64,000 nucleotides of DNA from Mantamonas sphyraenae STR306 (Eukaryota; Protista; CRuMs). The DNA lies in assembly GCA_026936335.1 (NCBI GenBank), contig JAPMXV010000048.1, positions 3,584 to 67,583 of the forward strand. The letters run 5' to 3'. The position numbers and the translations under genes are program-made. Shown piece by piece: positions 6,510 to 64,000 of the stretch (its first letter is position 1; each line of letters begins with the position of its first letter). Below the pieces are notes generated by a model. It was not told the DNA's origin and ran no database searches. It saw nothing but the letters and a program-made list of their open reading frames with translations.

Positions 6510-6608
6510 ACGTGCCTCTGCTCTAGTGTATTGTAGACGATGCCAAACACCGCATTGTGGCTCCATGGCTTCAGACACTGTGAGCCAGCCCATGAGCGTT
6601 CGACCAAC

Positions 6609-11497: not shown

Positions 11498-11533
<36 letters not shown>

Positions 11534-36238: not shown

Positions 36239-36410
36239 CGACTCGACCCGGAAGACACCTTCAATGAACAATCCGAGACATACCAAAAGTGTACAGCCAA
36301 CACCTCAGGTGCACAGCGACGGTAGTCCAGACCCATGGCACAACCACATCCTCCAGGCGCTGGACGACGATGCATAAGAATAGACAGGCATGTCTGCAAA
36401 ATCATATTCC

Positions 36411-41315: not shown

Positions 41316-42233
41316 ATGTCGCGGCAAGGCTCACACGGCAAGCGCGACCTGGACGATGCAGAAGCAACGCAAGATCAGCCGTCCGCACACGCCCAGGAAA
41401 GACAGCCTCTCAAGCGCTCGCGTGTGCAGGATGAACCCATCTTTCAGTTCATCCTGGATGACCAGATGGAGCACCTGGTGGAGTACCTGAGCAATCCGGG
41501 AGTGGATGAGGAAACACGGGAGGAGCTCATGAACCACATGTACACCGTGGTACCACGCCCTCCTGCATTCCATTGCACGTTTGCGTCTCGCTCACGACAT
41601 ACTTGGACTATCTCACCTGAACGAGAGATGGTGTGGAGCCACACAGAGCCGCGTGAACGCGTAAAGTCGTTCGTCAGACGCATCCTCGATTTTGGCGCCA
41701 TCACGCAAGCCAACCAAGACGGCGCAGGGCTTCTTCTCCAGGAGATGGCGGCTTTTGCTCGAAGCAACGCACCGCGCCCGTGCACATGGGAAGGTGTATC
41801 GGACACACTTTGCGTGGCAGCCGAAACGTCCAGCCTCGACACGATGGATGTGGAGGTTGTCGTGACGCCAACGGTGGATGAAACGCTGCAAGGATGGCTG
41901 GCTGTGTCCCTGTCTACCGCGATCACAGTGCATGAAGGGACGTCGGCAATCGATCTGATGCGTGCTCTTCTGCAGGAGGTGGTGTCGGTTGGAATTGTGG
42001 TCGCCTCGGATCAACTGGGTCGTGTGATGGCGACACATCTGGCCAAGATAGAGTTTGTGGACACACAGGTTCTGCAGGAAGTGGTAAACATTGCGCTGAC
42101 GCACACGGAGGCTGTGCAGAAGTCAACGGCGTACACGCTGCACATCAACCTGGTGATGAGTCTGTGGGATGAGCTGGTCCAAGAGTGTACACAGAGTGCG
42201 CACGAATCCATCTCAGTGTCCAAGGACCCATGA
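41316..42233 (+). CDS. Hypothetical protein (~305 aa), right copy
   Basis: Mirror of 18102-19019. Confidence 0.65.
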   Translation: MSRQGSHGKRDLDDAEATQDQPSAHAQERQPLKRSRVQDEPIFQFILDDQMEHLVEYLSNPGVDEETREELMNHMYTVVPRPPAFHCTFASRSRHTWTISPEREMVWSHTEPRERVKSFVRRILDFGAITQANQDGAGLLLQEMAAFARSNAPRPCTWEGVSDTLCVAAETSSLDTMDVEVVVTPTVDETLQGWLAVSLSTAITVHEGTSAIDLMRALLQEVVSVGIVVASDQLGRVMATHLAKIEFVDTQVLQEVVNIALTHTEAVQKSTAYTLHINLVMSLWDELVQECTQSAHESISVSKDP

Positions 42234-43246
42234 TCGGCAGCATGGCTGACGAAGTTTCTTTCGAAAGGTGTTCCTCGTGGTGTTTGAACACAATTCTACG
42301 ATTTTATCCAAATGCACGAGTCTGCCCACCCATTGATTTGGAGGAAGAAATGGCCACACCCAAACCCCGTTTTCGATGGTGATTCTGCCTTGTATGGGCT
42401 GTGCTCACCCTCTCAATCCATAGAAAGCACATGCCATGAGAGCACAGTGGGCTGATCGTGTGCGAGGAACGACACACCTGAGAAACGCAACAAGAACTAC
42501 AGCACAACTCACCGGTTCCATCGGAGCCATCAAACACCAAACATATGGCGAGATGTCTGCGTTGAAGCCACCCGTAGCGACAGTCACCCTTTGGGGTGAC
42601 CAATTTCCCGACCTCAAAAAATGAAGCGCCCACGTCACCAGCAACACTTTGGGACCACATTGCATGGTGTTCCGCAACCGCACCTTCTCCGTTGACATGT
42701 ACTCGGCCGATGCGTGTTGTGATGGGAAACTCACCACTCACCTCACTCCGGCCTGTGTTTAGTGTGTCCAGCCCGCTGGCAGAGATTCGAATGCACGCAG
42801 CAGCAGAAATTGTGAAGCCAGCCAGCTCACAGGTTCAATAGTGTGTAGGTGCAGAAACGACGTTGCTGGAAGTGTTTGCACCGATGGATATCCGTCTCGG
42901 ATGCGTCACCAAGTTGCAACGCCGCTTGGGAGCATTTGGTGAACAACACCGGGTCAACCTCTCGCTCTGTACTGGCTGACTCTTCGAACCGTCTGCTAGG
43001 AGACCAAATGGAGATATCAACCACTCCCAGCGTGTTTAACAGTGCAGAACGAGCATACGCCAACCTGGAAAGAGGGTAAAACCAGCTTGACGGGATCGAA
43101 AGACCACAGCGCTGTGGCCACAGCGACGGTCCAACGTGGTTATCGGTGAGAGAATACCAGATCACTGCATACTATGCCATGTATCCACATGCATGTTGAT
43201 TGGCCTCAGTGCGCCGGGTTGGGCAATTTTCAAAACACCGCGCACG

Positions 43247-44668
43247 ATGACCAAGGCATCTCTACTCTCTATCGTGTCTCTGGCAGCGACTCTCATCCTA
43301 CTTGCTGGACCATCCCGTCAGACAGTGACAAACGCTCAATGGGGCGGACCTGAGGACGACTACGCTCGTTGTGTGAACGAAGCAAGCGACGGAAGCGTGT
43401 TCATCTCGGGCTGGACCAAAAGCAGCCTGGATGGCTACACAAATGCTGGCGACGCCGACTTTTACGTGACACGCATGTTCCGTAACGGGACACGTGTGTG
43501 GAGCAGGCAGTGGGGCACTGACAGAGAAGATGAGCTCGTCAGTGCAGTGGTAGATTCGCAAGACAACCTGTATGTGTTTGGCCAAACACGAGGCTCCTTG
43601 CCTGGCTTCACGCTAAAAGGCGATCGAGACTTGGTGGTGAGCAAGCTCTCTCCGACGGGCACCATTCTGTGGAACAAGCAGTTCGGAGTCGAAGCAACGG
43701 ACTACGCAGACGTCGCAGCGATGGACGCCTCGGGCAACATCTACGTTGCTGGCAGCGTGTTTGGTTCGTTCATGAACATGACAAGTGGCAATCCTAACCT
43801 GCAAGACGTGTTGGTGGTGAAACTGGACCAGAACGGGGAGATCCTGTGGTCCAGGCAGTTCTACAGCACCCCCTACATGGGCAACAGCCAGAGTGAGAGC
43901 GTGTGGACGATGGAGATCATCAACAACGCAATCTACGTAGGCGGACGCACCAGCGGAGACATCACGAACCAGAACAGAACGTACAGCAACGCCAACCACG
44001 GCTTTCTGATGAAGCTTGACCCGCAAGGCAACCGCGAGTGGGTGTGGCAGAGCAACTACACGACACCTGTACTTCCCAGAGGCATGGTGCTTCTCTCGGA
44101 TGGTCTGTTGTACACGATTGGCAACCAGGGCAGTCCCGTGTCCAAACCCTTGTTGATGCGCCACCACACGAATGGCACGTTTGTGTCATCCACTCAAGTG
44201 AACGGGGTCATCCAAGCAGACACTAACCTGGTTGCCCACCATGGCAAGCTGTACTATGCAGGAACCATCCCAGACAACAACCTTCCCTTCAAACGCGCGC
44301 TGATCGAGATGGATCCCAACGGGACCGTGATCTTGGCATCCCGATGGGACACTACACCGACTCCTTACAACACTCGATTCCTGTCCGACGGGGCGCTGAT
44401 GGTGACAGGCAAGGTGGATCAGTTCATTGCAGTTGGATTCCAGAGCGCTGGCAAAAGCGACATGTTTACGACTGAGTATGCGCCCAGTCCCAGTCCGTCC
44501 GCATCTCCGACTCCTGGTGCATCTGCCACACCGACCCCGACGCCCACAGCCACAACCTCTCCCAGTGCGAGCGCTTCGTCCCAGAATGCGAGTGGCCCAA
44601 CGGCCGGTGCGCTGCTCGTCATGCTGATGGCCTCTGCGGCGCTTGCCCACATGCAAGGCACGTGGTAA
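43247..44668 (+). CDS. Secreted SBBP beta-propeller surface protein 2 (~473 aa), probable GPI anchor
   Basis: Signal peptide MTKASLLSIVSLAATLILLAG; repeats WSRQWGT..D....VDSQDNLYVFGQT.GS...GDRDLVVSKLSPTG..LW; PT-rich linker; hydrophobic tail. Confidence 0.85.
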   Translation: MTKASLLSIVSLAATLILLAGPSRQTVTNAQWGGPEDDYARCVNEASDGSVFISGWTKSSLDGYTNAGDADFYVTRMFRNGTRVWSRQWGTDREDELVSAVVDSQDNLYVFGQTRGSLPGFTLKGDRDLVVSKLSPTGTILWNKQFGVEATDYADVAAMDASGNIYVAGSVFGSFMNMTSGNPNLQDVLVVKLDQNGEILWSRQFYSTPYMGNSQSESVWTMEIINNAIYVGGRTSGDITNQNRTYSNANHGFLMKLDPQGNREWVWQSNYTTPVLPRGMVLLSDGLLYTIGNQGSPVSKPLLMRHHTNGTFVSSTQVNGVIQADTNLVAHHGKLYYAGTIPDNNLPFKRALIEMDPNGTVILASRWDTTPTPYNTRFLSDGALMVTGKVDQFIAVGFQSAGKSDMFTTEYAPSPSPSASPTPGASATPTPTPTATTSPSASASSQNASGPTAGALLVMLMASAALAHMQGTW

Positions 44669-45953
44669 AGACACGTAAAATCGTTGCTTACCCTGTCCAC
44701 TTTGATCCCTCGTCCTCTGAGATATCCAGTCGGTATACGCAAAACGAGAAAACGAGAGTATCCCAAGAAGGATGGGTTTGTACAAAATCGCGCAATATCG
44801 TACAATATCCACCTCCAAGCTGTGCGCAGAATGTGTGACCTGGAGTAACACCAGGAGTGACTGGAGTGATAGAATGATTGTGAGCACAGTGCAGCCGTTG
44901 TCTGCGACTCTCAAAGTGCTGTCTGGGCTCCTTGGAGGGGTTGTTTCGGCAAGTGATTCGTCATCGTGTGTCGGCTGTGCCCTTGCTTTGGATACCCTCT
45001 CCAGATGGATCTCACTTTGCTGTGGGTGCAACGACAGTTGTAGCTTCTGCATTGCACGGTTTTCGGTGGGCAGAGCAAAGCGACATCCTCACACCATCCC
45101 AGCCTGGTCAGATTCCCTTTTGCACAACGGCAATCAAACGTGCCCACCGAGCCTGTCCCTCAAATGGTCACGGTCCATACCACCGTCTGTATGAAGCAAC
45201 CCATGGGTTTGGGAGATCCCAAGGATCGTTCTTTGGATGGGTGAGCCTCCTGCACCAGAAGAGCCGACTGGGCGAAGTTGGTCCTCACGCACCAACCTCC
45301 GGCGCCTGTGGAGCCAATGCTGTCCATACCATTTCTTGAAGTAGACCGCACAGCTGAGGTGGTGGCGAAACGAGAAACCTGAGATGAGCAAACGCGACCC
45401 GGACTGCGCATGGCTCGATTGGACCACGTCTACCGTGAATCGATCGGTCGACTCCAACTCTGCTCCCAATGCTAACAACTGTGCGCTCCAATAGAGTTCA
45501 CACCAGGCATGGAAGAGCAGCCAAGGAGTCGGCCACAGCGGATCTTGCCTGATGCACCCTGCACATCCAGATCGCACTGGTCGGAGATTGACCCTACCTT
45601 GCCAAGCTCCACCGTAGGCCATCAGAGACACCTGTGACACCTGAAAGCTGCTTGTAGGTGTTCGATCCAACCTCTAACCGATCTTCGGGTCAGAAACGCC
45701 GCGCAACAGGCTTCCAACGCGACCTGGGAGGGCAAAACCCGCGCAAGCCCTGACACCAAGCCGCTTCTCCTGCGACTGCGTGACAAGCCGGACACAGGGC
45801 CACAGACGGATGTCCAACACAACCATGCAGAGCATGCACCTACGGACGGAACAAAGAGGCGATTGCCACCCTGTCAGAGGGGTAGAAAGCGACGTGAACG
45901 ACTCGTGCGCAACTCGCAGCAATTTCAAGCACGAAAAAACCACCCCGTCCGCG

Positions 45954-47321
45954 ATGCCGCGTTTCTTCCTTCTCATCTTGACCATTACGCTTCTGTGTGC
46001 GACACCCACACTGGCTGTACAGACGTACACCTTTCCCGGGTGCAACGACCACTTTTCTGGGCTTGCTTCGTCTCCGGTGACACGCTCGGGCGTGCGTTGG
46101 GACGCCAGTGCGCAGGCGCTGTATGTTGTAGACACAGCATACACCACGCTTGCCAACCAGCTTTCATACTCGGGACCAGGAGTTGCGCGCGGCTTCCTGG
46201 CCAAGATGGCCCTGAACGGCACGACGGAGTGGAGCGTTCGCTTCCGGTCATTCGGGTCAGACGTGGTGCTGCAGGACGGCTCTGTGTTTGTGCTTGGTCG
46301 CATCTCCACCAACCCATCCCTGACGAGCGGGCAGACAGAACTCAGTCGCGTCATGCCCAACGGCACGGTGGTGTGGAAGATGGCGGATTCGGACATGAGC
46401 CAGAGTGGGCTGCGCATGGCTTCGTGGGGAGCGTCAGACCTGGTTCTGGTTGGACACATCGCCAACACAACAGCCAACACGGTAACGATGTATGTGCAAC
46501 GGCGTGCGTCGAACGGCACGGTAAAGTGGACCACGGTGTTTGGAAGTGGCGACAGCAAAGACCAAGTGCGCGAGGTGGGCGTCGATGCGAGCTCTGGAGA
46601 CATCTTTGCAGCGGGCGGTGCATCCACCAACATACCAGGGTACCCGAAACCGTCTGGATTTGCGACGCGGATGTTTGTGGCACGAGTGTCGTCTGCAGGT
46701 GTGCTCCAGAGCGTGGCCTACCCTTCGTCTTCGCCCACAGGAGGGGCAACGATGGTAGACTACGACGCCCAGAGCATCGCTGTAGACAGTGCGTCTAGCA
46801 AGCTGTACACTGTCGCCTACAAGGCCGAGAACTCTGGGTGGCGCGCCACGCTGTACCAAACAGATTTTGCTGGAACACTGAACTGGCATCGTACCAATGC
46901 GTCGATCGACAACCAGTTCCCCCGACCTGCAATGGTCGATGTAGATTCCACGGGAGTGTACTACGCAACCTGGTATCTGCAGGGCACGACAACCACGCCC
47001 ATCTCGGCCGTGCTGCGGTACGACGCGACCGGCTCGTTCCAGTGGTGGAAAACCTGGGCTCCAGACCACTACGTGTCTGGCATGACACTTGCAGGTGACT
47101 CCATCGTGGTGTTTGGCTTTACCATGGATGCGAGCACGTCGACCCGGTACTGCTCGCTCTCGGTGGTTGGCAAGAGTGAGCCGTCGTCGCCCACACCGGA
47201 CAGCTCGACCCCAACCCCAACTCCAACGGCAGCACCCACTTCCAGCGACGCAACTCACAACCATGTTCATTTGATCCTGCTCCTCCTCACTTGGCTCTGT
47301 CTCCTTCATTTGCTGCAGTGA
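45954..47321 (+). CDS. Secreted beta-propeller surface protein 1 (~455 aa), right copy
   Basis: Mirror of 13011-14378. Confidence 0.8.
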   Translation: MPRFFLLILTITLLCATPTLAVQTYTFPGCNDHFSGLASSPVTRSGVRWDASAQALYVVDTAYTTLANQLSYSGPGVARGFLAKMALNGTTEWSVRFRSFGSDVVLQDGSVFVLGRISTNPSLTSGQTELSRVMPNGTVVWKMADSDMSQSGLRMASWGASDLVLVGHIANTTANTVTMYVQRRASNGTVKWTTVFGSGDSKDQVREVGVDASSGDIFAAGGASTNIPGYPKPSGFATRMFVARVSSAGVLQSVAYPSSSPTGGATMVDYDAQSIAVDSASSKLYTVAYKAENSGWRATLYQTDFAGTLNWHRTNASIDNQFPRPAMVDVDSTGVYYATWYLQGTTTTPISAVLRYDATGSFQWWKTWAPDHYVSGMTLAGDSIVVFGFTMDASTSTRYCSLSVVGKSEPSSPTPDSSTPTPTPTAAPTSSDATHNHVHLILLLLTWLCLLHLLQ

Positions 47322-47465: not shown

Positions 47466-48017
47466 TCATGTCTCTATCATTTCAAAGCCTGTCAAGTTGC
47501 TCGAACTCATGTGCTGCTGCCTATCCAGTTGTGCCTGCTGCTTCTCACTCCACACTTGTGTTTCATCGTCGGCGGTTGGATTTTCCAGGTAGATATCGTT
47601 TGACCTGTGCGCACCGCGGCGAAACTTCTTGGCAAGGTCCAGCTCGTGGAAGCTACACGGACATTGACCTTGGGCGCTCGCCTCTCCCCGGCCAGAGGAA
47701 TACTGACTATTGTCCTGCTGCGTGCATTTCCAGTGGCGCCGCAGATTCTTGGCCGCTTGGGCCCAGCCGAACAGTTGCTTACCTGCCAGTATGTACGTGG
47801 CGTATTTTGGCTGTGCACCGTCACCATCTTTCTTCGATCTCTTCATGATGGGCACACCAGCTTTCGATAGAAGTGTTTTCACAGCAGACAGTGTGAATTC
47901 TTTGTCCACCTTCTTGGTGGCCAGCAAGCAGCCATCTGAGGCCGAGTCAACATGTGTGTTGACAACGTCACGGATCTCGGCCAGGGTTTCTGCCGAGACC
48001 ACTTGCCTGTCCGTCGA

Positions 48018-48049
<32 letters not shown>

Positions 48050-48801
48050 GATCGTCGTCGTTCGTGTTCGGTGTGTTGTACGCACATAACACAATGTCTT
48101 CCGGCGCCTTCTCCAGTTGCCGGAGCTCGTCGGTTGTTGGTATTCCCAGAAAACCCAGAATGCGGTCCAGAACTTCCTTGTCGTCGCTATAGTGCGGTGG
48201 TGACGTGTTTGTGCGCGACGTGAGCGCATTTGTGTGCTTCGAGGTCTCCCTGACAGTTCTCCTGCTCAGTTTCTCTGCAGATTGAAGCGTTTTCTGTGAG
48301 CATGTCAGAAGGGCAAGGTTCTGAAGGCGTTTGCAACGGTTGTCTTGGATTGAATACCAGCCACTGGATGATAAGTGCTCCTTGGGAGAGTCCAACAAAG
48401 CCACGAACTCACGGTAGGGGATCGCTTCCCAGATACCCAGTTGTTCTGCAGGTGACATCCCGCAGTACAAGTCCACCATGTCCGGTTGCGGTCCGCTGTA
48501 CTCATCATCCCCTTCTTCGGCTGTTTTCATGTTCTTTTGCAATTCTTCCTTGTACTTCTCCTCTGACTTGTCGTTGGTACGATACTCCTCCACCTTTTGC
48601 GCGACCTGGCGCAGGAGCTTCTCGTTGACCTTCTCCAACCGCTGGACCCCGCGGCGCCTTTTCTCGTACCACCGTACATTGTTTTCCGCTTTTGAAGTGG
48701 GCGGTGTATATCGTTGGCACCGAAGCTTGACGGTGGATACGTACAAGCGCCACAGATCTGATGTTGTGTCGAGCTTGTGTCCCGAGCTGCTACTGCTACT
48801 G

Positions 48802-48837
<36 letters not shown>

Positions 48838-51800
48838 AGGTCATTGAACTCCTCACTGCTGTCTGGCTCCCCCTGATCCTTCTCAACCCGCTGGTGTTTT
48901 GCGACGGGGTTCTCGTTGTCATCAAACTCACCCCCTCGGGCGTCTTCATCGCTTCGATCACGCTTGGAAGGTCGATCTGTGGCGTTCAACTCGTCCTGCG
49001 AGTTTGACGGCCCGTACGGCACGTTGACGTCGTACACTGGTAGCTGGGGTAGGGTGACTTCACCGTCCACAGTCCAGACATGGACGTTGCTTTCGTATGG
49101 TTCCAGGACGATGCGAGCATGACCATCAACATCTGTGTCCCTCAGGGGGATTGGGGCGTCGAAATAGTACACGTTCTGCCCGTTGTGCGCTAGGCCTCGC
49201 TCAAGTTGCTGAGCATCAAACGAAGAGCTTTCTGCTGCGCTCCATTTCGCCAGCAACTCTACCATGAATGCTACATCGCACGGGTCTGAGGATCCCATGT
49301 GCATGTCCCGCTGGGCGTTATGGGGACTTCCAAACAGTCTCTTGTTGCTCAACCTATCCTTGGCATGCTGACGCTTGGCGTACTGGTCAAAGTCCTTTTT
49401 GTGCTTGAAAAGAAGCTCCAGATTCGCGACGTAATCTTTGTGCCGTCCGACGGAGACCAAGTTCATCTGCGAGCGCAAGAACGCCTCGTTCACATCGTTC
49501 GGGACGTTTCGCACACGGTTTACCATCTGCACAACCATCATGGGTGATGTTAAGTCGGGTTTCCGCAGAAAAGAGAATGAATCGAACGCCGTGGGCTCGA
49601 CGCTCACTCCTTCAACGATTTTGCTCGTCACAAACGTCGCGTCGTGATCTGCGCAACCTTTTGCCGATTGGCTCCTGGCCATATTGCGGAAAAGCCCTTG
49701 CTTTCTCTCGCTTTGTGCCTTGTGAAAATCGGTCAGCGGAATCCGCTTGAATGTACTCTTGCTCATGGCGTTCAGGTTGCGGACGCTCCGGTCCTGTTCC
49801 GTTTTGTCCACTCCCTTGCCCTTTACCAAGTACACGGTGGGTTTGCGGTCTGTCACAGCGGCTTGGTTTTCGGTGTAGAGCTCGCAGCAGCGTTCAAGGT
49901 CATCCACTGCAGAGAAGATGCGGTAGTCGCGGAGAAACTCCAGGTCAGCCTGTGGACGGTGCTGCCATTCGGCGATCATGCGCTGCAGAAACGTCTCCTG
50001 TGAGCGGTGGATGACCACGTCCATGCCACGTGGCTTTTCTCGTCCGACTACGATGACACGGAAACGCAGATTGCGGTTGGGAACCAGCCTGCGGATGGTG
50101 GAAACCCAAAACGACACCGTCTCCGGCGTCAACTCCGCCGAGGCAAAGTACAGCATCTTGGCTGTGATGAATGTGCGCAAAATACAGCCGAGGGTCGCAT
50201 TAACCGGTGCGTTGTGTGCCAACGTTTGTTCCAGGAGCTTGCTCGGTAGCCGCGCGATCTCGTCGAGATTGACAAACTCAGGCTCCATGTTTTCGTGGTA
50301 CACATGGCGCAGCATGCTCTCCATTGTTGAGACGACGTGTTGCACATCTTCCTTTCTGCGCTTGCCGTTGCGGATGTCATCGTACGAGACGACGCCCGGG
50401 AGGTTGTCCATCAGGCTTGGCAGCAAGGCAGTCCGGTAGATGATGCTCAGCGAGGACTGCAAAAAGGCCGATTCTTTGTCGTCTCCATCTGTGGCATGCA
50501 TAAGGTAATCGGAGTGCAGACGGGCGAGGAGAAGCGACTTACCCAGAGCCGTTGGTGCGCACACAAAATAAACAAGCATCGGCAAATTGCCTTCTGCATC
50601 CTCAATCTCGATATCGTCCTGCCCTTCGTAGTCACGGCGCAGATGATCCATGTCTTGCGAGATTTTGGCCCACACCTCCTTGTCGTCTGCGCGACCGGCA
50701 TGGACAAACACATCCTGCTGATGGATCTTCTCCTTGAGACCATCCAGCCAATCCTTCTCAGCCCTTTCTTTCTCCAAGTCCGACGCCATCGTTCGGGCGG
50801 GCTGTGATTGTATGTTGTACAGGATGGCGCTCATGAGCACAAGCAGCGTGTCCAGGTCCAAGTTGCACAGATCGGGCGACTTTGGTACCTGGGACACCTT
50901 GTGCCGAGGATTCCCTCCACACACAGCCCAGTTTTCGTCTTTCCGTACATACACGTACACCTTTGGCAAACGAGAGAGGGTGACGCGGATTTGTGTCCGC
51001 TCCTCTTGGTCGGTGATGATTAGCCGCACCGCACCGTTGCCAAACGCCGAGCGGCGCACCTGTACATCTGCTTCCTCCCAGGTCTTGTCAAAAGCTCCGC
51101 TTTCGTCTGTGTTCATCGTGTCTGTGGCTGTCTGAGTGTTGCAAGAGTCGCTCGGAAGGCGAGTTGGTATCAGACGCGCAGTCTCCTCCAAGATCCTCCC
51201 CAAATAGCGCAAACCTTCGTGTTGAGCATGCTGGGTGAGAAACGTGGACACGTACTTGTCCAGGGACATTGTGCTCTGCTCGTCGGACGTGTCGAGCCTG
51301 TGCAGCAGCCAGTTTGCCAGCACAGGAGGACACGTTTGTTCAGCTTGCATGGTGTACGGCCACAGAGCACTGGTGGAACTGTACGCTGTCAGTAGCTTGC
51401 TGTAATCCTCGCTCATCACCAATTTCCGCACCGACTTGTTCCAAGCCTTTTGCTGCACTGTCCCCTTGAATCTCTGAAGGACAGTCACAGGGTGGTCGCT
51501 GTTCAAGCCACACATGGAAGGTGAGTGTCGTTCGGGAAGAAGCATTTCAGAGCACACCATGACGCCACCTAGCTTCTTCTCAATTTCCTTCAGGATCCCC
51601 AGCGTGCGCTCTGCGGTGTCCCGATCCACACGCAAATCCACAACCAGCTGGACGCACACAGATGGATCGTCTTTGTCAGCAGAGCGACGGACCATGATGG
51701 TGTACATAACGCTCATGAACTCGATGTCCTCGTCCTCGTATTCGCCGACCAGCTTTTGGAGAAACTCGAGCACCACTTTCTTGGTATGCGTCACGTAAAC

Positions 51801-52343
51801 GCCGTCGTTCTCTTCATCGCCATCATACCGGAAGTGAACTACCAGTTTGTGATCCATGTCTTGGGCATACGTGGCCTCAGCCAGAGGCACGACGTTCTCC
51901 GCTGCATGCTCCTGGTACCATCGCAGCATTTTCTCACAGTACCCGGGGTACTCCATGTTGCCAATACCCATGCGCGCCGTCTCTTCGCCGATTTGTACGT
52001 ACACGGGGCCACCTCTTTTCCTGTACCTGCGTTCGAACATACCAAAGCCCGTGCCGAGTTTACCCTTGCCTTTTCTTTGCGCTGTGCTCGACGGCTCTTC
52101 AGCGTCTTCCCCAATCCCAACTTTGACTGTAGTGTTGTCTACATCGACTACAATCTCATTCACAGCCTCGTTGCTACCCCTCACAGGCTCGTTGCTACCC
52201 CTCACAGGCTCCACTTGTGTGGCCGGATGGTTGTGCACAGCGAGGGTGCTCTCGGCCGACGGCAGTCCAGTGTCAGTTTCCAGCTCCATGCCATCGACTG
52301 TAGCCTCATTCTTGGCTTCAGACCGGCTGTCAGACCCCTGCAT
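47466..52343 (-). CDS. UL9-like replication origin-binding SF2 helicase (~1625 aa from ATG 52343; ORF open to 52502)
   Basis: Motifs in order: CAPTALGKS (I), IYRTALL (Ia), STMESMLRH (Ib), VNLDEI (II), FASAEL (III), VTSKIVEGVSV (V), MVVQMVNRVR (VI). These parallel HSV UL9 RAPMGSGKT, SCRRSF, QVESLHRV, LDEV, MDAT, YTTVVTVGLSF, VYQSLGRVR (recalled from memory). Confidence 0.8.
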
Positions 52344-52597
52344 ATCCCCACTGAGCGAAATCTTGATTGGTTGGGGGTGACGGCGCATCACGAACAGGAA
52401 AACATACTCGCCTATCGAGTGCTCCAACCGATGCCGCTGGTGTCCGGACCTGGTCCTGCACGCTGCTTCATCAACCAGGAGGTACCAACTCATCACACAC
52501 ACACATACGCCAGCTAGGCTGACTTTTGCGAGCTGGTGCCCGTACTGTTTAGCATCACTGTGTCAAGAACAAGGAAATTATAAAGCCCACCTTCTTT

Positions 52598-53206
52598 TTA
52601 TGCTTCTGCTTCATCGTCTGGGATGGAACGTCGGTTGCGCCGGCGGGGGAGAATTATCTCGTCATCGTCATCTCCAGAGTCGTCCACATCGCTTCCGGAG
52701 TAGCATGAGCTGTTTAAATCGTCAACATCCACATCCAAGTCACTCCAGTTGGCATAGCCGTAGTTGTCCTCCTCATCAGACCCCTCGTTGTAGTACCACT
52801 GATCGTCCTCATCTTCCTCACTCGTCCAACGGTTCTCGTCCTCCTCGTCACTGCTTGTAAGCTCAATGCACTCCAAAAACTCGTCGTCATCCGCAATAAA
52901 CTGCCTCATCTCCTCCTCCTCCTCCGAGTCCATAATCTCCTCCTCCTCAAATTCGTCATCAATAAAACGGAACCCGTACCCCCCTACTCCACTGATGGTT
53001 TCACCCCTATCTTCCTCGGCCTCATCATCTATTCCTTCTTCCAGTTCGTACCCGCTGCGGTAGTCTGCATCGTTGTCATCGACAACAATGTTGTGGTCAT
53101 CATCGCCATCGTTCATCGTTGGTGTGTTCAACGAACCGATTGCACCACTCGGCATCGAACCAGAGCACTTGTTTTCAGAATCACCTTTAATTGACTGATG
53201 GGTCAT
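52598..53206 (-). CDS. Small highly acidic protein, right copy
   Basis: Mirror of 7128-7736. Confidence 0.7.
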   Translation of the reverse strand: MTHQSIKGDSENKCSGSMPSGAIGSLNTPTMNDGDDDHNIVVDDNDADYRSGYELEEGIDDEAEEDRGETISGVGGYGFRFIDDEFEEEEIMDSEEEEEMRQFIADDDEFLECIELTSSDEEDENRWTSEEDEDDQWYYNEGSDEEDNYGYANWSDLDVDVDDLNSSCYSGSDVDDSGDDDDEIILPRRRNRRSIPDDEAEA

Positions 53207-53368
53207 TTGGCGAACTACACAACGTTATCTTGGCACAGCTGGAGCATTGCGAGGCACATCTGCTCGCGAGACTACCAATTGGTTTAACGTTACCAAAGTA
53301 CAATACAACACCACAACAATACGATACAGACAGTTTTTGTTCACATGACCTTGGACATCTTCACCGAT

Positions 53369-53724
53369 GGGTGGTTCCTGACGATGACCCGGGGTCCGGA
53401 CTCGAGCTTCATCGTGAAAACCACACTTCTCACCCAGCCGACCCCACCTCTCAAAAAAAAAAATCATAGGATGGTATATATATACAACTTTTTTTTTTCG
53501 CCACACGACCTTGGGTGGTTCCTGACGATGACCCGGGGTCCGGACCTGAGCTTCATCGTGAAAACCACACTTCTCACCCAGCCGAGGCAAGACCACCCCA
53601 CCTCTCCAAAAAAAAAAAATTCATAGGATGGTATATATATACAACTTTTTTTTTTCGCCACACGACCTTGGGTGGTTCCTGACGATGACCCGGGGTCCGG
53701 ACCTGAGCTTCATCGTGAAAACCA
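53369..53724. repeat. Palindromic-box/AT-rich array, right copy (candidate origin)
   Basis: Reverse complement of 6609-6965; differs only in and next to the homopolymer tracts. Confidence 0.9.
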
Positions 53725-53823
53725 GTTGGTCGAACGCTCATGGGCTGGCTCACAGTGTCTGAAGCCATGGAGCCACAATGCGGTGTTTGGCATCGTCTAC
53801 AATACACTAGAGCAGAGGCACGT

Positions 53824-56451
53824 TCATTCGACAATCATCTCCGCGCTTTGTTTTTCTCTGTGAGAGATGGCCTTGCGGAGTGCAGCCACAAACGTCTTTG
53901 TGGTGGGCCCAATATAGCCTTCGTTTTCAACCGCCTTGGATCCTTGCATGAGTAAATCCAGGGCCTTCAACATTCTCACGTTGGTCTGTTTGCTCAGCGT
54001 CTCGCAGAGCTTGTCTTCATCGTCAGTTTCGTCGACATCCAGCAACGGGTAGAGAAACAACCCACGCTTGCAGCGAGTCAAAGCAACGTAAACGAGGTTC
54101 AACGACTCGTCCGCGTTACCTTGCGTGCTGGCAAACAGGTCAACGAGTCCGAGGATGTGCACATTCCCGCGATCGGCCCCCTTAGCTTTGTGTACCGTCG
54201 AGATCTGGATCTTGAAGAGTCCGTTGCCATCCATGGCGTCTGCTGGAGCGTGCATAAAGTCGTTGAAGCGCTGCTGGAGTTCGTGTACCCCCTGCTCATG
54301 AACGAGATCATCCCGCTGCAAGTACCGCCACCCTCGCACAAGAGCCACAGTTCGCAACATCATCGACACCCTGCGGTTCGCACCTCTGATGCTCCTGAAG
54401 AACTGCTGGACGTCCTGGCGAGTGTCGAAGCGACCGACCACGGCTGTGCGGCCAACGCCCTCCGTGTCGGCAACTTCTTCGGGTCCGAGCATCACCTGCA
54501 ACTCGCGTTCGACGAACCCCTGCGCGGTAGATCGCCACTCTTCCACATTCGTATGTTCTTCTGAGCCCCCGTGTTTGCTCCACCGACACTGGAGCTCAGT
54601 GCAAACTTGGGCGTACTCGTGGCCGCGATTGTCTGCAAGGAAGAATTGGTCGTACACAGCCAGCAACACACACTGCTCCTGGTTGTTGCGTACGATCAAT
54701 AGGTCATCGTTTTCTGCCGTGGTCGCTCGGGGCAGCTCCTCGCGCGGCCCAAACGTACCTTGCGCAACGACGTCCTTGTCAAACTCGATTGGGGTGCCCA
54801 ACGTCTCCAGCACTGGTGCCATCTTGGAAAACACGCGACGTGTGAGTTTCAGCTCCAGGGTGTTCGTTCGCATCCCCTGGTTCGAGGCTTCCTCTTTCAG
54901 AGTGGCAAGCGCCGTTGGTGCCGCTCCTAGTGACAGGTTGATGGCCTGGCGCTTGTCGCCAAACACTGCAAGTATGCTGCCCTTCTTTTCCGTCATGCGG
55001 CGGGCAAATTCGATCATGGCGGGAGTGCAGTCCTGTGCTTCGTCCACAATGAGCAGAGGGGCCACCATGTGCTTCTGCGGCAAGGAATCTGCGCCTGTGA
55101 TGTTTGCCACGTACACCGCATCTGGCATTGACACAATGCTTGTCATGTTGTTGGCAAACAGCTCGGCTGGCTTCAGCACCAGGCACACGAGCTCGGTCAG
55201 CACGCCCCGCTCAAACTCTGCCCCAAGCGCCTTTTTTTCCAGTCCAGAGTGAGTGCGCAGATTGCGTTCCGTGTTGATCATGTGGTATACTTCACTCTTG
55301 TCGTTGCCAATGTTCATCTGCATGCAAGCCTGGCTGTAGAACTCAACCAGCGTTCGCAGCACCTTTTGCTCGACGCTCCTGACCAGCGGCGCATACTGCT
55401 GACAGCACTGTGTCAACACAGGCTTGGCAAACTTTACAATGTTTTGGTAGTGTCTCTGACACATGTCCCGAATTTCCTGGTTGTTGGTGCTTGCCTTGGA
55501 CGCGTCGGCTCGTTTGACAAATTCGTTCGTAAGCTTGGTCACGTTTTCGCATAGGTACGAGTCAATGCGCTCATCGTCGATCTTCATGCCCTGTTGCATG
55601 TCAGCGCTCGCTCTGCACAGTACCTGCACAAAGTATCTCGGAAGAACCGAGCTCGAAGAGCTCGAATCAAACGTCACCGCTCCCTTTGCATGACTGCCCA
55701 AATCGCTCATGGCCTTGGAATGGAAAGTGCACACGTGCACACCATCGTCACTCCGCTTTGCCGCCACCTTGACTCCAGCTCGCTCGAGTGCCTCCTTCAA
55801 ATCGTTCGCGTTGGCGCGGTTGAACACCAGCACATACAGAGCTCGGTCGGTCGTCCACCGATTCTCTCCACCCTCTTCTCTGAGGACTTCCTTCACAATA
55901 ACCCTGATCACAGTCGACTTGCCCGCACCCGGCACTGCCTCAATCACAAGCCCCACCGCGTCCTTCTTTCGCGTCGCGGCCACTATCAAATCGACAAGCT
56001 CCCTCTGATCCCTGCTCAATGGCCTCTCTGTTGCTCTGCAAACATCTCCAGCCGATGCGGATGACGAGCAAGGCTGATCCAGGTGCTGCGTCGAGTCTGA
56101 AACGGCGCTCGCGTCTACTTCGTCCATGCGCCATGCCCGTGGGGGTTAGTTATTGTTGTAGAGGTGTTTATGTTTTACCAACCACGTAATTTGGAACCGT
56201 GTGTGGACGTTTGGGGGGCACGTACCAAGGTCAATGCGAGCCTGTTTCTTTGGCTGGGGCAGTGCCGCTGCAACTGTCGAAATCCACTCGTCCTCCTGGT
56301 ACGACTCCTCAATACTTGCTGAACGTGCACGTTTGCGCCCTTCTTCGTCGTGGGGCTGTGAACCTGCATCGGGCTGGCTCGTTTCGTCTGCCAGGACAAT
56401 GTCACCAACACTCTCATCGACAGGGTCGATTTCCGGGATATCGATGTCCAT
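53824..56451 (-). CDS. UvrD/REP-like SF1A helicase (~840 aa with upstream exon)
   Basis: LSRDQ (Q), EAVPGAGKST (I), VFNR (Ia), TFHS, IVDEAQD (II), GDKRQAI (III), TRR (IV), STVHKAKG (V), YVALTRCK (VI); exon 1 56451-56226. Confidence 0.92.
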
Positions 56452-56675
56452 GATTGCTTGTTTGCGTCTTGTGAGTGATCGAGCGGATTACTGTGACGTG
56501 CAAAGTGCAATCGCGTTGAGTTGCCTCAGACGGGGCAACCACGAGCTGCAGACCAAGTTGGACCGACAGGGCCACAGTGATGCTCCCACGCCCCTCAGAG
56601 CTTCCTCCATGCCCACACAGGTCGACACATCCATCTGTCAACCAGTAGTCCATGTATGGTCCCTGTTTGTGGTTT

Positions 56676-56990
56676 GTTTCGTGGTCCCGGACTTGGTCCG
56701 GACTGGACCTTCATCGAAACCTCCAGTCACACGAATTGATGAGGTGAAATGAAAAGCCAAAAAAATCAAAATACACCCGATTTTACGATGACCAGTGGGT
56801 CCGGACCTGGTCCGGGCCCAGGCTTCATCGCAAAACCAATCACAATCCACAGTGTGTGTGACCAAAGAGTGTGTTGGTACATGTGCGGAACTGTCCTCCC
56901 AGGACTTGGTCCAGGACTCACTGATATCGAAAGCGGTGAGCGAAACGACACGAACCCGACGATGAGAGTGGTCCCGGGCGAGGTCCAACC
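56676..56990. promoter_or_regulatory. Divergent intergenic region with GGTCCGGACC hairpins, right copy
   Basis: Mirror of 3345-3660. Confidence 0.55.
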
Positions 56991-57155: not shown

Positions 57156-60100
57156 ATGGAGAACAGTGAGCAACAGGAGGGCAATGTTTGGGGAGCCACA
57201 CATCGTAGAGATAGACCTGCAGCATCACGTAAACGCAAGAGGTCCGCCAAGCACCAGCGACGCAAGGGGGGTGGCCGATTTGGCGTCCAGGTGGCTGCGC
57301 AGCAAGTGCCCATCCGGCTCGGGGACCAAGAACAAGAGCAAGAAGAGGAGCCGCAGAGCATTGACCCTGTAACTGACCACGCACCTAAGCGGTCCCGGGT
57401 AGAGTCTACCCCATCTGCATCTTCGAGCTCCAGCTCCAGCTCCAGCTCCGAGACCCCAAACGGCACGGTGGGTTTCCCCTCTTGCAACCTCCATCCCGGC
57501 CCAGGTCATGCACTCACACGTACCGAATGCGCGCATGTGTGGACATCCTGTGCCCGTCGCCACTACTTGCAGCCCAATGGTGACCAACAGGCCCCTGCTT
57601 CACCTTCAAAGCACCAGCTGCCTGACAAGCACACATACGAGAGCATCACCTTGGAGCTGATCGAAGATATCAACAAGAACGAGCTCACACACCTAGGACC
57701 CAATGCTAAGCACCCCAAGAGCAACCTAGTTGCCGCTTTTCAACAGTATCAAGGCGGCGAGGTAACCCCTGGTCAAGTGAAAGCGCTCGTGTGGGCGGCC
57801 GCCTCAGCATCACTGGACCTCCCGCCTCCCGAGCCCCTGCTTACCTCCTACGAGAAATTGAGGCAATTTGTCAACAGTGCATATGTGTGTACATCAAACA
57901 TGTCTTCAGCCCAGTGGGATTTGGTGGTCTATGCAAGTTTCTCGGGGCTGATCCCGCTCACAGTGCTCTGGGAACACACTGGGTGCCACTCCTGGACCTA
58001 CTATGGAGGTATGAATCGCAATATCATTCGACCTGCATTCCACCTCACGGATGTTCGCATTGACAGCACACCGGCTTTGGAAGTTGACGAGCGACGTTTG
58101 ATGAGCGTGGAGCTGGAGGCAGCCACCCTTGTTCAGGCCAAGCTGCTCTCGCTGGACAAAGAGAATGAGCAGGAAAGAGAGACACTGGAAGCGCTCGCAG
58201 AGAACTGGATGTCGTCCATTGAAGAGCTTTTACACCAGCGTGGAGGCAACAAAAAGGAGCCGCTGTGGGTTCATGGTTCGAGCTGCAAACTCACCTCTGA
58301 GCCAGAGAGTGTCATCAACAAATACTGTCAAACGTTTCTTGAGAACAACAGTCAGGAGAGGGTCGATATTGTGGAGACACTAATCTGCTTCTGGATGGAC
58401 CCCAAACACGGTGCCAACGCAACACGGTTTCGCGAGTTCCCGTCGATGCGCTCGAGTCTGATTGCCACCACCAATCCACAGACCCTCTGCAAGGCGGCTC
58501 TGCTTGCCCAGCGGGTGACTGCTGAGCACCAGGAGAACCTGACAAAGGCTCGCCAGTTTGCGGATGAAATTCGTTCCCAGGCGAGGAGCGACAGCGCGTC
58601 TGAGGACGAATTGGCCATACTCACGTGCTTGGCATTTGTGGGTGTAGTCCCGCTGTGCAAACTTGGCGCTTGGTACAAAGACGTGGAAGAACACGTCCTC
58701 GTGCCCGTTTTCGACAAGCTCGAGTCCATCGAACCCTTCCACGATTACCCCCTACCGCTCCAAATTCTGTTGGAAACTGAGCTACATCGTGCCCATGAAC
58801 TTCATGCACACGCTTTTCAGCAAGATCAGGACGCTGCAGCCGCCAACACGAACGACTGCGAGCGAACAGTGCTGCGCAAGGCCTGGCGGAACTCCTTGGT
58901 TGGCTTGCTCGAACGACAGCACGACGCGTGGGAACACAATGTCAAAGCCATGAACGGCTACAGTGTCACCTCAGACTATTGTGTACAGTGCCTGATTCGA
59001 TCGGACCGAGCAGCCCCCCACCACGGCGTGCCGATTGCCCGAGCTATCACATGTTCATGGGTCCACCACATCGCTCAGAAGAAGCAAGTCGCCAAGTTGG
59101 CTGCACATGCCGTGTACCGCTTTGCGGCGACCGCCTGGATGTCGCCACGTGCCTATCTCAGCAGCAACATGCACAAGACATCGACGGCAACCGAACACAC
59201 AAGCATCTGTCGCCCACTCCTTTGGATCCACTGCTTCGACAGCGACGCCGGCCTTCTTCTGTGGGATCCAAAGCCATCGGGTCGCGCTTCAAGCTCCTCT
59301 TTGAACAACAGCGAGCACCCTGGCGCCTTTGCGTGGATGGCCAAACAACCCTTCTGTCCGGCCACCTGCCCTGTTGCAGCCAATCTCGACGCCGCCCTGA
59401 TGGCTCAGAACGCCTTTCCCTGCCTCACCTATGACACAGCCAAAGAATCTGTCCCTCTCATGGAACCACGACAATGGCGTGCTCGTATGAAGAGGGCCTG
59501 GACTGTGCGCAACCACTACGTGTACCCACGCTTCGCACTCAAACTTGCCTGGCTCTTGCACTGGCGGCTGCAGAATCTTTCCCCCCATCCGCAGGTCAGT
59601 GAGGACTCGTCCGACGAGGAAGACCGCCATGGCTCCGCTGGCAACACAGAATCCAATGGACCCTTGGATCACCTGCAGCAACTCCGCAAGGACTCCTGGC
59701 CCTCCACACGCGTGCAAGGGACAGTGCTCCACGAATGGGAGATCATCAACCTCCCGCACGTTTTTGCAAACCTCATCGACCACAGCACTCTCAAAGCACT
59801 CACAAAGAGCCGCGCGTCAAACAACGCAAACCGTTCGCGTTCCAAAACTCGCGTGCCCAGAGAAGTCAAGTACTTGTCCGTTTTGGAAGGCAAAGACACC
59901 ATCGACGCAAACCAAGCTGTTTCCGTACGAGGCCACGTGGTGGGAGCTCGGCTCGGTTCTCTTTGATCGTGAGTACTCTCGCTGCACCGCAGACTACCGT
60001 GCCCTCCGTTCCCGCCTGAAAGATCTCCCCTTCCCTTGGGTCCCTCCTTCCTATTCGGACGACGACGACGATTTGATTGACTGCCGCGAGCGCTGGGACA

Positions 60101-60264: not shown

Positions 60265-62914
60265 TAGGGATGATTTTCCGATCCACCGCAACCAACCCTG
60301 CACCACTGCGCCTCTGGTCATCGGTCGCCAGCAACCCACACCCATCCACACACAGTCAAGGTTTTCCATGCTGGCGGGATATAGAGACGTGGATTGCAAT
60401 CCTGCACTGCGCCGGCTGGTCCAAAACAACAACGACAAATGACGCGGAGAACCAGTTACCCCCTGACATGCAGACCCTCCTGGTCGAGATTATCAGGTGG
60501 CTCCAGCTCGCAGGTGATCTCACCTACATCACACCCTGCACCTCGCACATGGACATCGAGTCCCTGCCTTCAGCGCGCAACAACAGCACCACAAATGGAT
60601 CTCGAGAAACACCTCGTCAGCAGAAACTCTCCACCGCAACAGGACAAGCGACATCCCTCTCCGCTGCAAGATCGCAGCATAGACGACCCATACGATTGCT
60701 CGTGGTCCTCTGGAGACCTCCTTCAAGAGGACGAGGGCCCGCCGCACAGAAAAAGGCGCAGACACGCTCGGTGAGATGCAGTCCAGAGGAGGAGGCAAGA
60801 GACACCCAAACTCGAACGGCGCTGGGGTCTGCATGCGGAACCCCGCAAGCACAGGTTGCACCGCGTGACAGCGTGCCTGATAGTGCAGGCCCCTTCTCAG
60901 CGAAGGCTCGTTTTCTGCTCAAAGCTACCGATTGTCGAGGGAGCCGAAGCAGGCAAGAAAGCACATGGCCGACGTTGGCGTCTACCCATCACAGAATGAC
61001 CATGGCTGCACGGGGACGGGGTATATGGACTGCTCACGTTCCGGATTTTCGTCGCCCCTGCACGCGAGACGGCACCAACCTGGGAAAGTGACCAACAAAC
61101 GCGTGAATGAAACAAGTGTATATGTGTGTGTGTGGTTGTGTGGTGTGTTTCCATGCATCGATGTGTCGGCGCGTCGTTGTAGGTGAGTGTGACGGAAAAA
61201 AATTTGTGATGAGGTGATGTCTTCCGGCGAGATGGTTGGTTGCGCTGTGAGCAAGACGCAGTCTCCTGTATAGGATAAGGGTGTGGGATTCATGTACGGT
61301 TGCAAAGAGGGAAGGGGTGATTGGCTGCTTTGTGGAACGGAAAAAAGTAGGAGATGGTGGAGAGAAGGGAAAGTGCTTGGTAGGCCCCGTGGGAGTCGCG
61401 TCTATTTTGCAGTACATGGGTCACCTTGCTGGAAACAGGATGTACTCGAGGTGTGAACGAGCGCGGAGGTATCTGGTGATTGGGGTGGCTTGTGTCGCTA
61501 AGTTTCCTGTTTCGATTCGTTGCACACCAGATGGTTGTTCCCCTGTGGGTTCAATGTGGGAGGAGGACAAAGTTTACAGTGGTACAATTGGTGGAGGAAG
61601 GGCCATGGGAGGGGGTGGTGTCTCCACTCATTGTGGGATGTGGGCGTGGTGACTATCATTTTCAGAGTGTCCACGGTGGTGTGGATGGAAGTCTCGAGGG
61701 GTGCCATCGATGCGTGTGATGTCTCACAACGACGGTGCAATTGTGCTCTGGGGTGATGTGTGGTGGGATGTGAGGGAGATGCGTGGCAATGCGAATACCC
61801 GGTTTGACGACATAAGCACCAATTTCGTACAAACAGTGCCCTAGTGCTCATCACAAACGGAAAAGAGTGTTCCCATCGTCGATCCAGGTCGTTAACAGGA
61901 CCGCCCATGTGGATGTAGGGGTTGGAAAGGGTGTAATAAGAGTGTCCAGTGAGGTGAGCACACTGGGGGAGGTCAGTGTTAGTTGCGGCAGCTCCAGGAG
62001 AATCTGTGCATTTTTTTCGAAGCTTGTACACGGAGGGTCGAAGATCGGTGCACCCACACCACAGTGGCATCAAATCGCCCATGGTGGAGCTTTTTTCGTG
62101 CGCGTAGTCTCGTCCACACCATCACTGAACCGCGGGTCAAGGATACAGCGCGGCAGACAAAACGCATGGTAGCCATCGACATGAGCAAACAGGGAAGACT
62201 GGGAGCGCAGCCGAGGCTCTGGTGGAGAGAGAGAGCAAGCGTACGACCTGAGACGTGTCACGCAAACCTGCTGCTGCACACGACGCACGCCGCAGTCGCT
62301 CCGCTGCTGCGTTCGCGTGCGACACAGTTGCACATTGGAGCTCGGCGAGAACGAACTGGGACGTGGCGGCGTGATATCCATGCCAGCGCCCTGTGTGCTT
62401 CAACACCACCCTCTGTGTGGTGCATCTGGAGGCAAAACAGCCTGGTGTGACGGTGCACGCGCATGGACGGATGTTGGGGAAAAGAACAACACGCTGGACA
62501 TGCCTGTATCTGGGCAACCATGATTTGGGGGACAGCGTATGGAAAAACTGGGTGATAGGGCTGATGGAATCCGCGGTGTGCAGAGTGCTGGGTCTGGAGA
62601 CAACGACATCGGATACCGTGGCGTTGTATGTGCTGGCGCAGTCCTTGTGGAAAACACACGGCTGCCACACAGTGAACCTGACGAAAACAACATGGGCGAC
62701 TTCTGCGCATGCTACTCGCGACGCACTCGTTGCACAACCACACGTGCAGCGCTGGACCGAGCAACAACGCGTGGGCGACGAACGGACTGGACAGGCTGGG
62801 CAAGGCGCTGTAGGCGGCAACACAGGACGGTAGTGGTACCTGGGCCACAAGCCAGGGAAGAAGCTGCTGCAACGTGCGACGGGAGTGAGGGAAAACAGGT
62901 GAATGGTATAGACA

Positions 62915-63379
62915 ATGCTGGAAATGGTGGACAGAGGAGACGCAGTGGCGGTGGCCTGGGCGGTCAGCGAGCTGAACGTGTCGGTGAACGCGTTCTTTGA
63001 AGACAGAACCACACCGTTGATGCGCGCGGTGCAGCGAGGCGACGTCAGGATGGCCAACATGCTGCGGAGACTAGGGGCAGACGCGGATTTGACCGCAGAG
63101 GGGTGGCTGGACGCATATTCGGCGCGGACAATGGCCACTGCCAGAGCGTGGAGACCAGCGTGGCATTGGTTGTGGAGTGAAGACGTGGACGACGCTGTCG
63201 AGACGGTGTTGGTCATGGAGGCAGTGGGAGGAGGAGCAGGAGGAGGAGGAGCAGGGTGGGTGCGCGTGGGTGAGATGGAGGTGCTGCAGCGCGTGTGCGG
63301 TTGGGTCGCACAGTTCGTCGAGGGCTGTGAGAGACGTGCAAAGGGACGTGGGGGCGGAACAAGACACACAGGGGTGTGA
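62915..63379 (+). CDS. Ankyrin-repeat-containing ORF, possibly the 3' part of a larger fragmented gene
   Basis: VNAFFEDRTTPLMRAVQRGDVRMANMLRRLGADADL fits the ankyrin consensus; upstream ORFs at 61983-62833 may belong to it. Confidence 0.55.
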   Translation: MLEMVDRGDAVAVAWAVSELNVSVNAFFEDRTTPLMRAVQRGDVRMANMLRRLGADADLTAEGWLDAYSARTMATARAWRPAWHWLWSEDVDDAVETVLVMEAVGGGAGGGGAGWVRVGEMEVLQRVCGWVAQFVEGCERRAKGRGGGTRHTGV

Positions 63380-64000
63380 GGGGGAGCGGGAGGACCAGGG
63401 CAGAGTGGGAGGGAAGCGGCAGCGTGTGGGAGAGTGAAGGAGGGGAGTTGTGCAGAAGAAACGGTGCGTGACATGACAAAGGGCGGCCCACTACGGTGAA
63501 GATTACAGCATGGAAACAGATTCATTCCCGCTTACCGTCTCCGCGGTTGGAACTTTTGCTTTGTTGCACACAATACAACCGTATCTGTTCAGCCGACAAC
63601 TGTTTTCCGTGATGAGCCGACTGATGCATGACATTGTGCAAATTCACAAAGATATGAAACAGCTTGGACTGCAAATAAGGAACGCCTACGAGTGTGTGGC
63701 TGAAACCTCGCTGCTTCTCCACGCGCGGCTCCAGGACCTTCAGATACTGAAATCGAGGACCCTTTCATGTGAACGGAACGAACAGGCTGGCAGTGGTCCG
63801 TTGCGTGTTAGCGCACCGTCCGGAAAGAAAGAGAAGGGTGTCGCTGGGCGGCGTGGAAGAAAGCGCGCTCGCCAGGTCGCCTCGTTGGACGCTGAAAACG
63901 ACCACATGTGTGTATCATTGAAACGGCAACGCGTGGAGTTGCATATAACTCCAGGCATGCATGTCATGATGTGCTTGATGCTGATTTCTGGTGTAGAGAG

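Follow-up and report, generated by a model that had tools for sequence, protein, structure and literature searches.

A stretch of 64,000 nucleotides from the protist Mantamonas sphyraenae STR306 (contig JAPMXV010000048.1, positions 3,584 to 67,583; the window) contains at 47466–56451 a block of about 9 kb which encodes a 1675-aa protein, referred to here as the large protein. The middle of this protein is, judging from its sequence, a superfamily 2 (SF2) helicase of the UL9 family and not an ordinary cellular helicase. Initiators of the UL9 family are already known from herpesviruses and giant viruses, from phages, and from plasmids of cyanobacteria. An earlier reading of the same letters (the original prediction) had placed a UL9-like helicase, a palindromic A+T-rich array, an acidic protein and a superfamily 1 (SF1) helicase in this block; all of these are present, and the large, acidic, UvrD-type and 101-aa open reading frames (ORFs) are co-oriented on the minus strand, the main ORFs being unbroken in this copy, which lies in the right arm of an inverted repeat (Table 1). 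By analogy with UL9 at oriS of HSV-1 (herpes simplex virus 1) and with the cyanobacterial CyRepA1 plasmid initiators, the UL9-family helicase might be a sequence-specific initiator which opens an origin at a three-site array for host polymerases, the unit being embedded in both arms of the repeat. This proposal is tentative, falling a little short of an even chance.

Domains and affinities of the large protein

In a language-model search with aa 630–1150 of the large protein, three Herpes_ori_bp clusters ranked at the top (0.97, 0.96 and 0.96), and 221 of 256 features agreed in the best match; the Herpes_ori_bp family is present in 53, 20 and 31% of the members of these clusters, respectively. 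ResIII/DEAD clusters followed at 0.95, a small margin below 0.97. For profile searches, family members were gathered from several sources: phage T5.108, which matches PF02399, and its relatives; plasmid proteins of the CyRepA1 type; and viral and metagenomic contigs scanned for motifs (7 of 10 members from these contigs match PF02399). With a profile built from 15 prokaryotic initiator domains of phages and plasmids, the large protein scores 22.9 bits, compared with 2.9 bits for the best of 200 shuffles; when 13 of the same domains are used as a profile, HSV-1 UL9 chains are found at E 4e-20 and the next chain at 5e-5. A giant-virus-type profile built from 98 non-redundant viral and metagenomic domains scores the large protein still higher, at 32.6 bits (best shuffle, 4.7). 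The language-model and profile rankings both favor the UL9-like family over DEAD, RecQ and ResIII, in agreement with the UL9-like assignment of the original prediction.

Residues required of an ATPase are kept in the helicase core: Walker A Lys652, Walker B Asp744-Glu745, and motif VI Gln989, Arg993 and Arg995 all fall on columns that are invariant or nearly so across 65–68 rows, and of the 12 columns that are invariant in the prokaryotic alignment, 10 are conserved in the large protein. Motif II of the large protein reads DEIA, compared with DEVM or DEIM in herpesvirus origin-binding proteins. In a structure model driven by an alignment of 77 homologue rows, the mean predicted local distance difference test score (pLDDT) is 62, and most of the first RecA domain lies at 80–93. 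The best PDB match of this model is HSV-1 UL9 (Z 18.9, root-mean-square deviation 4.1, 384 aligned; next Z 16.6), and among viral models the giant-virus origin-binding proteins match best, over 909–997 columns.

Several results weigh against the UL9-family assignment. The motif III Asp of the family, present in 66 of 66 rows, is Ser785 in the large protein. A comparison with Herpes_ori_bp had been put forward as a check in the original prediction, and its outcome is mixed: the structural match to HSV-1 UL9 stands, but the ranking of the model is partly circular because the alignment rows are these same homologues, and the Pfam family itself (PF02399) gives no match. When 10 full-length viral proteins were compared profile to profile (hhalign), the match was weak, at a probability of 7%. 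From a profile of 120 domains that is CyRepA1-dominated, the large protein receives 4.8 bits, a score under the best shuffle, and from a full-length profile of 39 proteins it receives only 5.3 bits. Folding from the single sequence reached only pLDDT 34, and profiles of the C-terminal, linker and archaeo-eukaryotic primase (AEP) regions, built from viral and prokaryotic relatives, do not rise above shuffles. In addition, the protein is left unplaced, on a branch of length 3.5, in a quick tree of 58 rows for which one third of the 98 viral domains were used.

Giant-virus primase-helicases are no less similar to the large protein than herpes UL9 is, and its sequence suggests that the gene is likely to be of giant-virus origin. 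As the protein is unplaced in the tree, this origin rests on the profile score and the architecture, and no donor lineage is claimed because of the long branch. No match to the large protein is present among 1.84 billion representative proteins, and direct searches of viral contigs, metagenome contigs, phages and plasmids, solved structures, PHROGs and NCBIfam found no relative; an exact look-up found none of 10 window proteins. The ORF had originally been given as 1678 aa; it is present, but its length is 1675 aa, and translation may in fact begin at a downstream Met, codon 51 or 69.

The N-terminal part probably retains a worn AEP primase fold, as in giant-virus primase-helicases. In the language-model search, aa 170–600 match AEP_C962R and Herpes_UL52 clusters best (0.88, a lead only), with 10 of 10 matches agreeing. 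In the alignment-driven model aa 215–318 form a palm (block pLDDT 54–79), and alignments of the large protein are colinear with AEP-PriCT-SF2 proteins. Four sequence tests for the AEP fold (hidden Markov model, hhalign and block tests) were not above shuffles. The motif II His of AEP, found in 38 of 38 rows, is missing in every alignment, its position falling on Gln282, and motif I lands on Asp224/Asp226 in one alignment and on His220/Arg222 in two others. Motif I may thus be represented by Asp224-x-Asp226 or may have been lost, and the residues of an intact active site (DxD/E of motif I, His of motif II and Asp of motif III) are not all present. That the large protein is an active primase is much less probable than that it carries the worn fold.

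In three further UL9-family helicases (L123, L128 and L142), the N-terminus lies outside the AEP motif III pattern and by eye resembles another primase-polymerase type; these differing N-termini suggest that the N-terminal module is exchangeable in the UL9-like family. In the C-terminal 450 aa of the large protein, profiles of viral and prokaryotic relatives gave no domain assignment, and UL9-type dimerization and SAP domains were undetected. UL9 is described as binding DNA via its C-terminal region in the available passages of PMC13483431.

Palindromic sites and the neighboring helicase gene

The window has 12 copies of the octamer GTCCGGAC, compared with 1.35 expected, and none of 100 shuffles reaches 12. 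Six copies lie in each arm of the inverted repeat, and in the non-duplicated 40 kb all six exact copies are within 52442–56806. Three 31-bp single sites of the form GATGA-n-GTCCGGAC-n-TCATC are at 53383, 53527 and 53684, with spacings of 144 and 157 bp, and constitute the array; the stretches between them are two A-tract/TATATATA/T-tract units of 72–73% A+T. The original prediction was correct about this array, but similar sites also occur beyond it, at 52430–52472 and 56673–56990. Those outside the array are double, with cores 11 bp apart; clear double sites upstream of the SF1 gene are at 56673–56716 and 56787–56829, and degenerate ones near 56900 and 56960. Folding of the array beats 100 of 100 shuffles (z −2.9), as is expected of any such repeat. 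Rfam gave no family match in the array or in the 40 kb, and the HSV box motif is absent. The site pattern was also found once each in 18 viral contigs, which was taken as chance; no relative of the large protein is encoded there.

The placement of the sites admits another explanation, which is somewhat unlikely overall: the block would consist of domesticated or residual viral genes; its three genes would be jointly controlled through the GTCCGGAC sites, bound by transcription factors or serving as operators, the A/T tracts would be nucleosome-free promoter DNA, the helicases would act in repair or recombination, and there would be no origin. Clusters of GTCCGGAC-centred sites are confined to gene 5′ ends, one for each of the three genes of the block, and none is at the 3′ edge of the block, an arrangement equally consistent with promoters or operators. 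The gene–site linkage is known from one case, as no related locus was found, and the change of GC-skew sign near 56–60 kb tracks gene direction; these three points count against an origin. Codon use like that of the neighboring genes, an apparently spliced SF1 gene and a depth equal to the flanks likewise suit domesticated genes, and the available text of PMC5294986 describes giant-virus genes in eukaryotic genomes as common, so their retention is on record and the large gene alone is less surprising. Nevertheless, no other gene in the 40 kb has a site at its 5′ end, and known viral and plasmid origins share this layout, with a long two-fold symmetric site repeated around A/T tracts close to a gene of the initiator family.

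The SF1 gene identified in the original prediction as a UvrD helicase bears out that assignment: Pfam UvrD-helicase (E 6e-15) and UvrD_C (E 3e-9) are both above the cut-off, PHROG 1967 matches at E 2e-30, and Rep is the best match in both NCBIfam and the PDB. Searches for close relatives of this protein found none. The block is contained in four public sequencing runs of one study (X1–X4), of which X1–X3 may be the source of the assembly. One contig of X4 skips a 111-nt GT..AG intron, the join being in frame and yielding 838 aa; the 101-aa ORF is therefore probably exon 1 of a spliced UvrD gene. The record of X4 gives DNA, followed by a question mark, yet this run skips GT..AG segments which are kept in X1–X3, and thus would be RNA. 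Contigs of X4 cover both helicase genes, one of them extending over 48846–52327. Family scans (Pfam, PHROG and NCBIfam) gave no match for the acidic 202-aa protein, which is a candidate DNA mimic or adaptor.

In related viral and metagenomic loci, the 28 P-loop proteins neighboring the UL9-family gene include two RecD-like SF1 helicases (on one contig) and no UvrD, indicating that pairing of a UL9-family protein with UvrD is not conserved in those loci. A helicase–methyltransferase fusion (Helicase_C plus MTS) adjoins the UL9-family protein in five of the loci (L160:6854–9883, L168:6443–10705, L185:8523–12305, L254:7877–11428 and L272:5604–8747).

Embedding of the block in an inverted repeat

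Positions 1–23921 are the reverse complement of 36414–60346 with 99.84% identity, differing by 4 mismatches plus 34 gaps. The original prediction reported a further copy of the block at 3883–12866; this second copy does exist, but it is not independent and does not represent a second insertion because it is part of this inverted repeat of at least 24 kb; the two copies differ at 12 places, 10 of which are gap columns, and the large ORF is frameshifted in the left one. Contigs of X1–X3 agree with the right-arm letters up to 60913, and the left-copy frameshifts are thus probably assembly errors.

Arms which differ almost solely by small gaps could reflect a long-read fold-back artifact. This is barely credible and, as far as contigs can show, refuted: in the contigs of three runs the arm has about twice the depth of the spacer (X1, 264–281 and 128–138; X2, 189–194 and 93–101, for arm and spacer, respectively), and an arm contig terminates at 36418, the repeat boundary. 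The 2:1 ratio and this contig end indicate that the inverted repeat is real. A contig at arm depth extends about 2.1 kb beyond the end of the window, so that the arms are probably 29 kb or longer.

The original prediction also regarded the block as a self-contained replication module, the core of a virus-derived or plasmid-like nuclear element. That the block is a self-contained 9-kb mobile or episomal element, inserted twice, is very improbable, and the idea is already largely refuted. The compact co-oriented gene set with its own sites would fit it, but the second copy shares 24 kb of flanks and the block has the same contig depth as its flanks. An 11,629-nt contig crosses its left edge and a 12,432-nt contig its right edge at the depth of the block; no single contig spans the block because simple repeats and the array interrupt the contigs. 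No contig joint links the edges into a circle, though contigs drop rare forms, and no shared terminal repeat is present at the edges. As originally stated, PolB, capsid and integrase are absent from the family matches: the Pfam scan of 29 window ORFs gave no capsid, packaging ATPase, polymerase, integrase, transposase or HUH family, although diverged capsids can escape such a scan and no family was matched by several arm proteins. The block is like its neighbors in GC content, codon use and CpG, with CpG slightly higher (0.97 compared with 0.80–0.89). Codon use of the large ORF correlates at 0.71–0.86 with seven long ORFs, and both helicases match the neighboring genes.

In a further reading, the free molecule is larger: a linear palindrome or circle of no less than about 72 kb, made up of the whole inverted repeat plus the spacer, would be a nuclear plasmid or minichromosome with captured host genes and two origins, one per arm. 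This reading, which adds a free state of the molecule to the initiator proposal, is unlikely. The 2:1 arm-to-spacer depth is in keeping with it, as is the observation that most other contigs touching the window are shallower than the spacer (X1, 31–69 with one at 111; X2, 24–43 with one at 89). Errors increase toward both outer ends, as at contig ends, and many arm proteins are without a family. These comparison contigs are, however, few, unselected and possibly single alleles, so ploidy or allele splitting can explain the ratio; contig depth is no copy number, and X1–X3 come from one study and may be the assembly source. In the spacer there is a high-copy repeat, as well as genes that have paralogues in other parts of the run, and neither a telomere array nor a closing joint was found within the window. 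In its fullest form, which is likewise doubtful, the free replicon would be a third kind of eukaryotic nuclear plasmid, derived from a capsid-less giant-virus relative, with its own initiator and UvrD helicase and two mirror-image origins that bypass host origin recognition.

Assembly errors cluster at 60347–64000 and 1–1320: the right outer end has more than 100 gaps relative to the contigs, and the first 1.3 kb on the left has 19 of the 38 arm differences. ORFs in these regions, including an ankyrin fragment at 62915–63379, are unreliable for this reason.

Table 1. Positions in the window of the parts of the block and of the repeat around it
Feature	Position	Strand	Description
1675-aa ORF	47466–52493	−	Probable worn AEP-like fold, linker, UL9-family SF2 helicase, low-complexity stretch, then C-terminal part
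SF2 helicase core	49494–50582	−	About aa 638–1000 of the 1675-aa protein
Predicted palm fold (beta-alpha-beta-beta-alpha-beta)	51540–51851	−	aa 215–318 of the 1675-aa protein; probable AEP-derived domain
Double site	52430–52472	.	5′ end of the large ORF; two octamer-like cores between GATG and CATC arms
202-aa highly acidic ORF	52598–53206	−	Without family match
Three-unit palindrome array	53368–53724	.	Candidate origin
UvrD/Rep-type SF1 helicase, main exon	53824–56114	−	Whole ORF 53824–56127, 767 aa
Intron of SF1 gene, 111 nt, GT..AG	56115–56225	−	One contig
Probable exon 1 of SF1 gene	56226–56451	−	Acidic, with basic cluster RKRAR; part of the 101-aa ORF 56146–56451
Site region upstream of SF1 gene	56673–56990	.	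Divergent intergenic; two clear and two degenerate double sites
Inverted repeat, left arm	1–23921	.	Truncated by the window start; contains the second block copy 3883–12866
Single-copy spacer	23922–36413	.	Half of arm depth; intron-bearing host-like genes
Inverted repeat, right arm	36414–60346	.	

Other genes in the repeat include one with a SET domain, two that are beta-propeller-like and several orphans. The beta-propeller-like genes, at 43193–44668 and 45810–47321 on the plus strand, adjoin the block and encode secreted proteins, probably membrane-anchored, with Pro/Thr-rich stalks. A K[RH]xRV motif resembling a nuclear localization signal is common to five proteins (39653–41266, 41316–42233, 47466–52493, 57156–59966 and 63510–63998), three of which (305, 936 and 163 aa) have no family. 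In the spacer, many contigs match 24171–24804, with a summed depth above 8000 in X1 compared with about 130 nearby, marking a high-copy repeat family near the left arm boundary. A 2316-aa ORF at 24697–31647 on the minus strand has a coiled-coil region and Cys-rich repeats without a clear family, an internal duplication of about 1 kb that is 97% identical, and a diverged paralogue in the same runs. The intron-bearing gene at 33040–35618, also on the minus strand, encodes a Niemann-Pick C1 (NPC1) N-terminal domain (E 2.5e-23) and has several paralogous contigs in the runs.

Proposed initiation mechanism and relation to known systems

If the large protein is an origin initiator, a dimer of it would bind the two-fold symmetric GTCCGGAC-centred sites through the C-terminal part, and binding on both flanks together with ATP hydrolysis would melt the A/T tract between them. 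The SF1 helicase could then lengthen the unwound DNA, and host primase and polymerases would complete replication. Host enzymes are proposed for the final step because the primase fold of the protein looks damaged and the window has no polymerase family. Sites at the 5′ end of each gene might also let the initiator regulate its own expression. Such a unit would serve the larger DNA molecule around it and not a free 9-kb element.

The UL9-like family itself is already known; its present setting was not found in the literature searched (titles, abstract starts and passages), where no eukaryotic nuclear genome was described as carrying a UL9-family gene accompanied by sites of its own. In a eukaryotic nucleus, the combination of an intact UL9-family initiator, a site array of its own and a spliced second helicase would amount to a viral-type origin at work among host genes, and the locus offers a precise, testable protein–site pair. 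The available passages of PMC11962162 name only two characterized families of nuclear plasmids; if the palindrome is free, it would add to these and could supply a portable origin for protist vectors. Should the locus hold no more than a domesticated gene and its promoter sites, it would still represent a very diverged branch of the UL9 family.

The giant-virus AEP–SF2 primase-helicases (mimivirus R8, pF1055L of African swine fever virus (ASFV), mriyavirus SF2_hel and SmDNAV) likewise carry a UL9-type helicase after an AEP fold, which is probable here, and are colinear with the large protein over about 900 aa. The available portions of two accounts describe this architecture in mimivirus R8, ASFV pF1055L, mriyaviruses and SmDNAV and an inactive orthoherpesvirus primase; in the same portions, mriyaviruses and ariadnaviruses are described as having no DNA polymerase of their own, and SmDNAV as also encoding an SF1 helicase (10.1101/2024.02.29.582850, 10.64898/2026.08.29.747986). 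Unlike these proteins, the large protein is about 600 aa longer, is without the motif II His and has 13–20% identity to the helicase-bearing rows; unlike giant viruses, the window has no capsid or packaging family match, and the block lies among intron-bearing host-like genes.

HSV-1 UL9 (PDB 9hgi and 9hgj) is the best solved-structure match and has in common with the large protein an SF2 core with a DExx Walker B. The HSV-1 system resembles the block in having boxes around an A+T-rich spacer at oriS, a layout given in the available passages of PMC13483431, and in including an SF1 helicase. It differs in its motif II, in its box, which is absent here, and in its SF1 gene, that of the block being UvrD/Rep-like; the block has no ICP8, primase complex or polymerase.

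The yeast 2-micron and Dictyostelium Ddp nuclear plasmids, as presented in the available text of PMC11962162, have inverted-repeat architecture and possible extra copies in common with the palindrome. The palindrome here is far larger than either kind of plasmid. Leishmania inverted amplicons reportedly share the same two features. To our knowledge, none of these three encodes a UL9-family initiator.

The CyRepA1 plasmid initiators and the phage T5 origin-binding protein T5.108 belong to the same helicase family as the large protein. In these systems, a single initiator gene adjoins a regulatory or origin region and depends on host enzymes. They are prokaryotic and have other N-terminal domains, and the CyRepA1-dominated profile misses the large protein. 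CyRepA1 drives plasmid replication, according to the available text of 10.1101/2023.10.09.561360, and thus a member of the UL9-like family can run a replicon on host enzymes.

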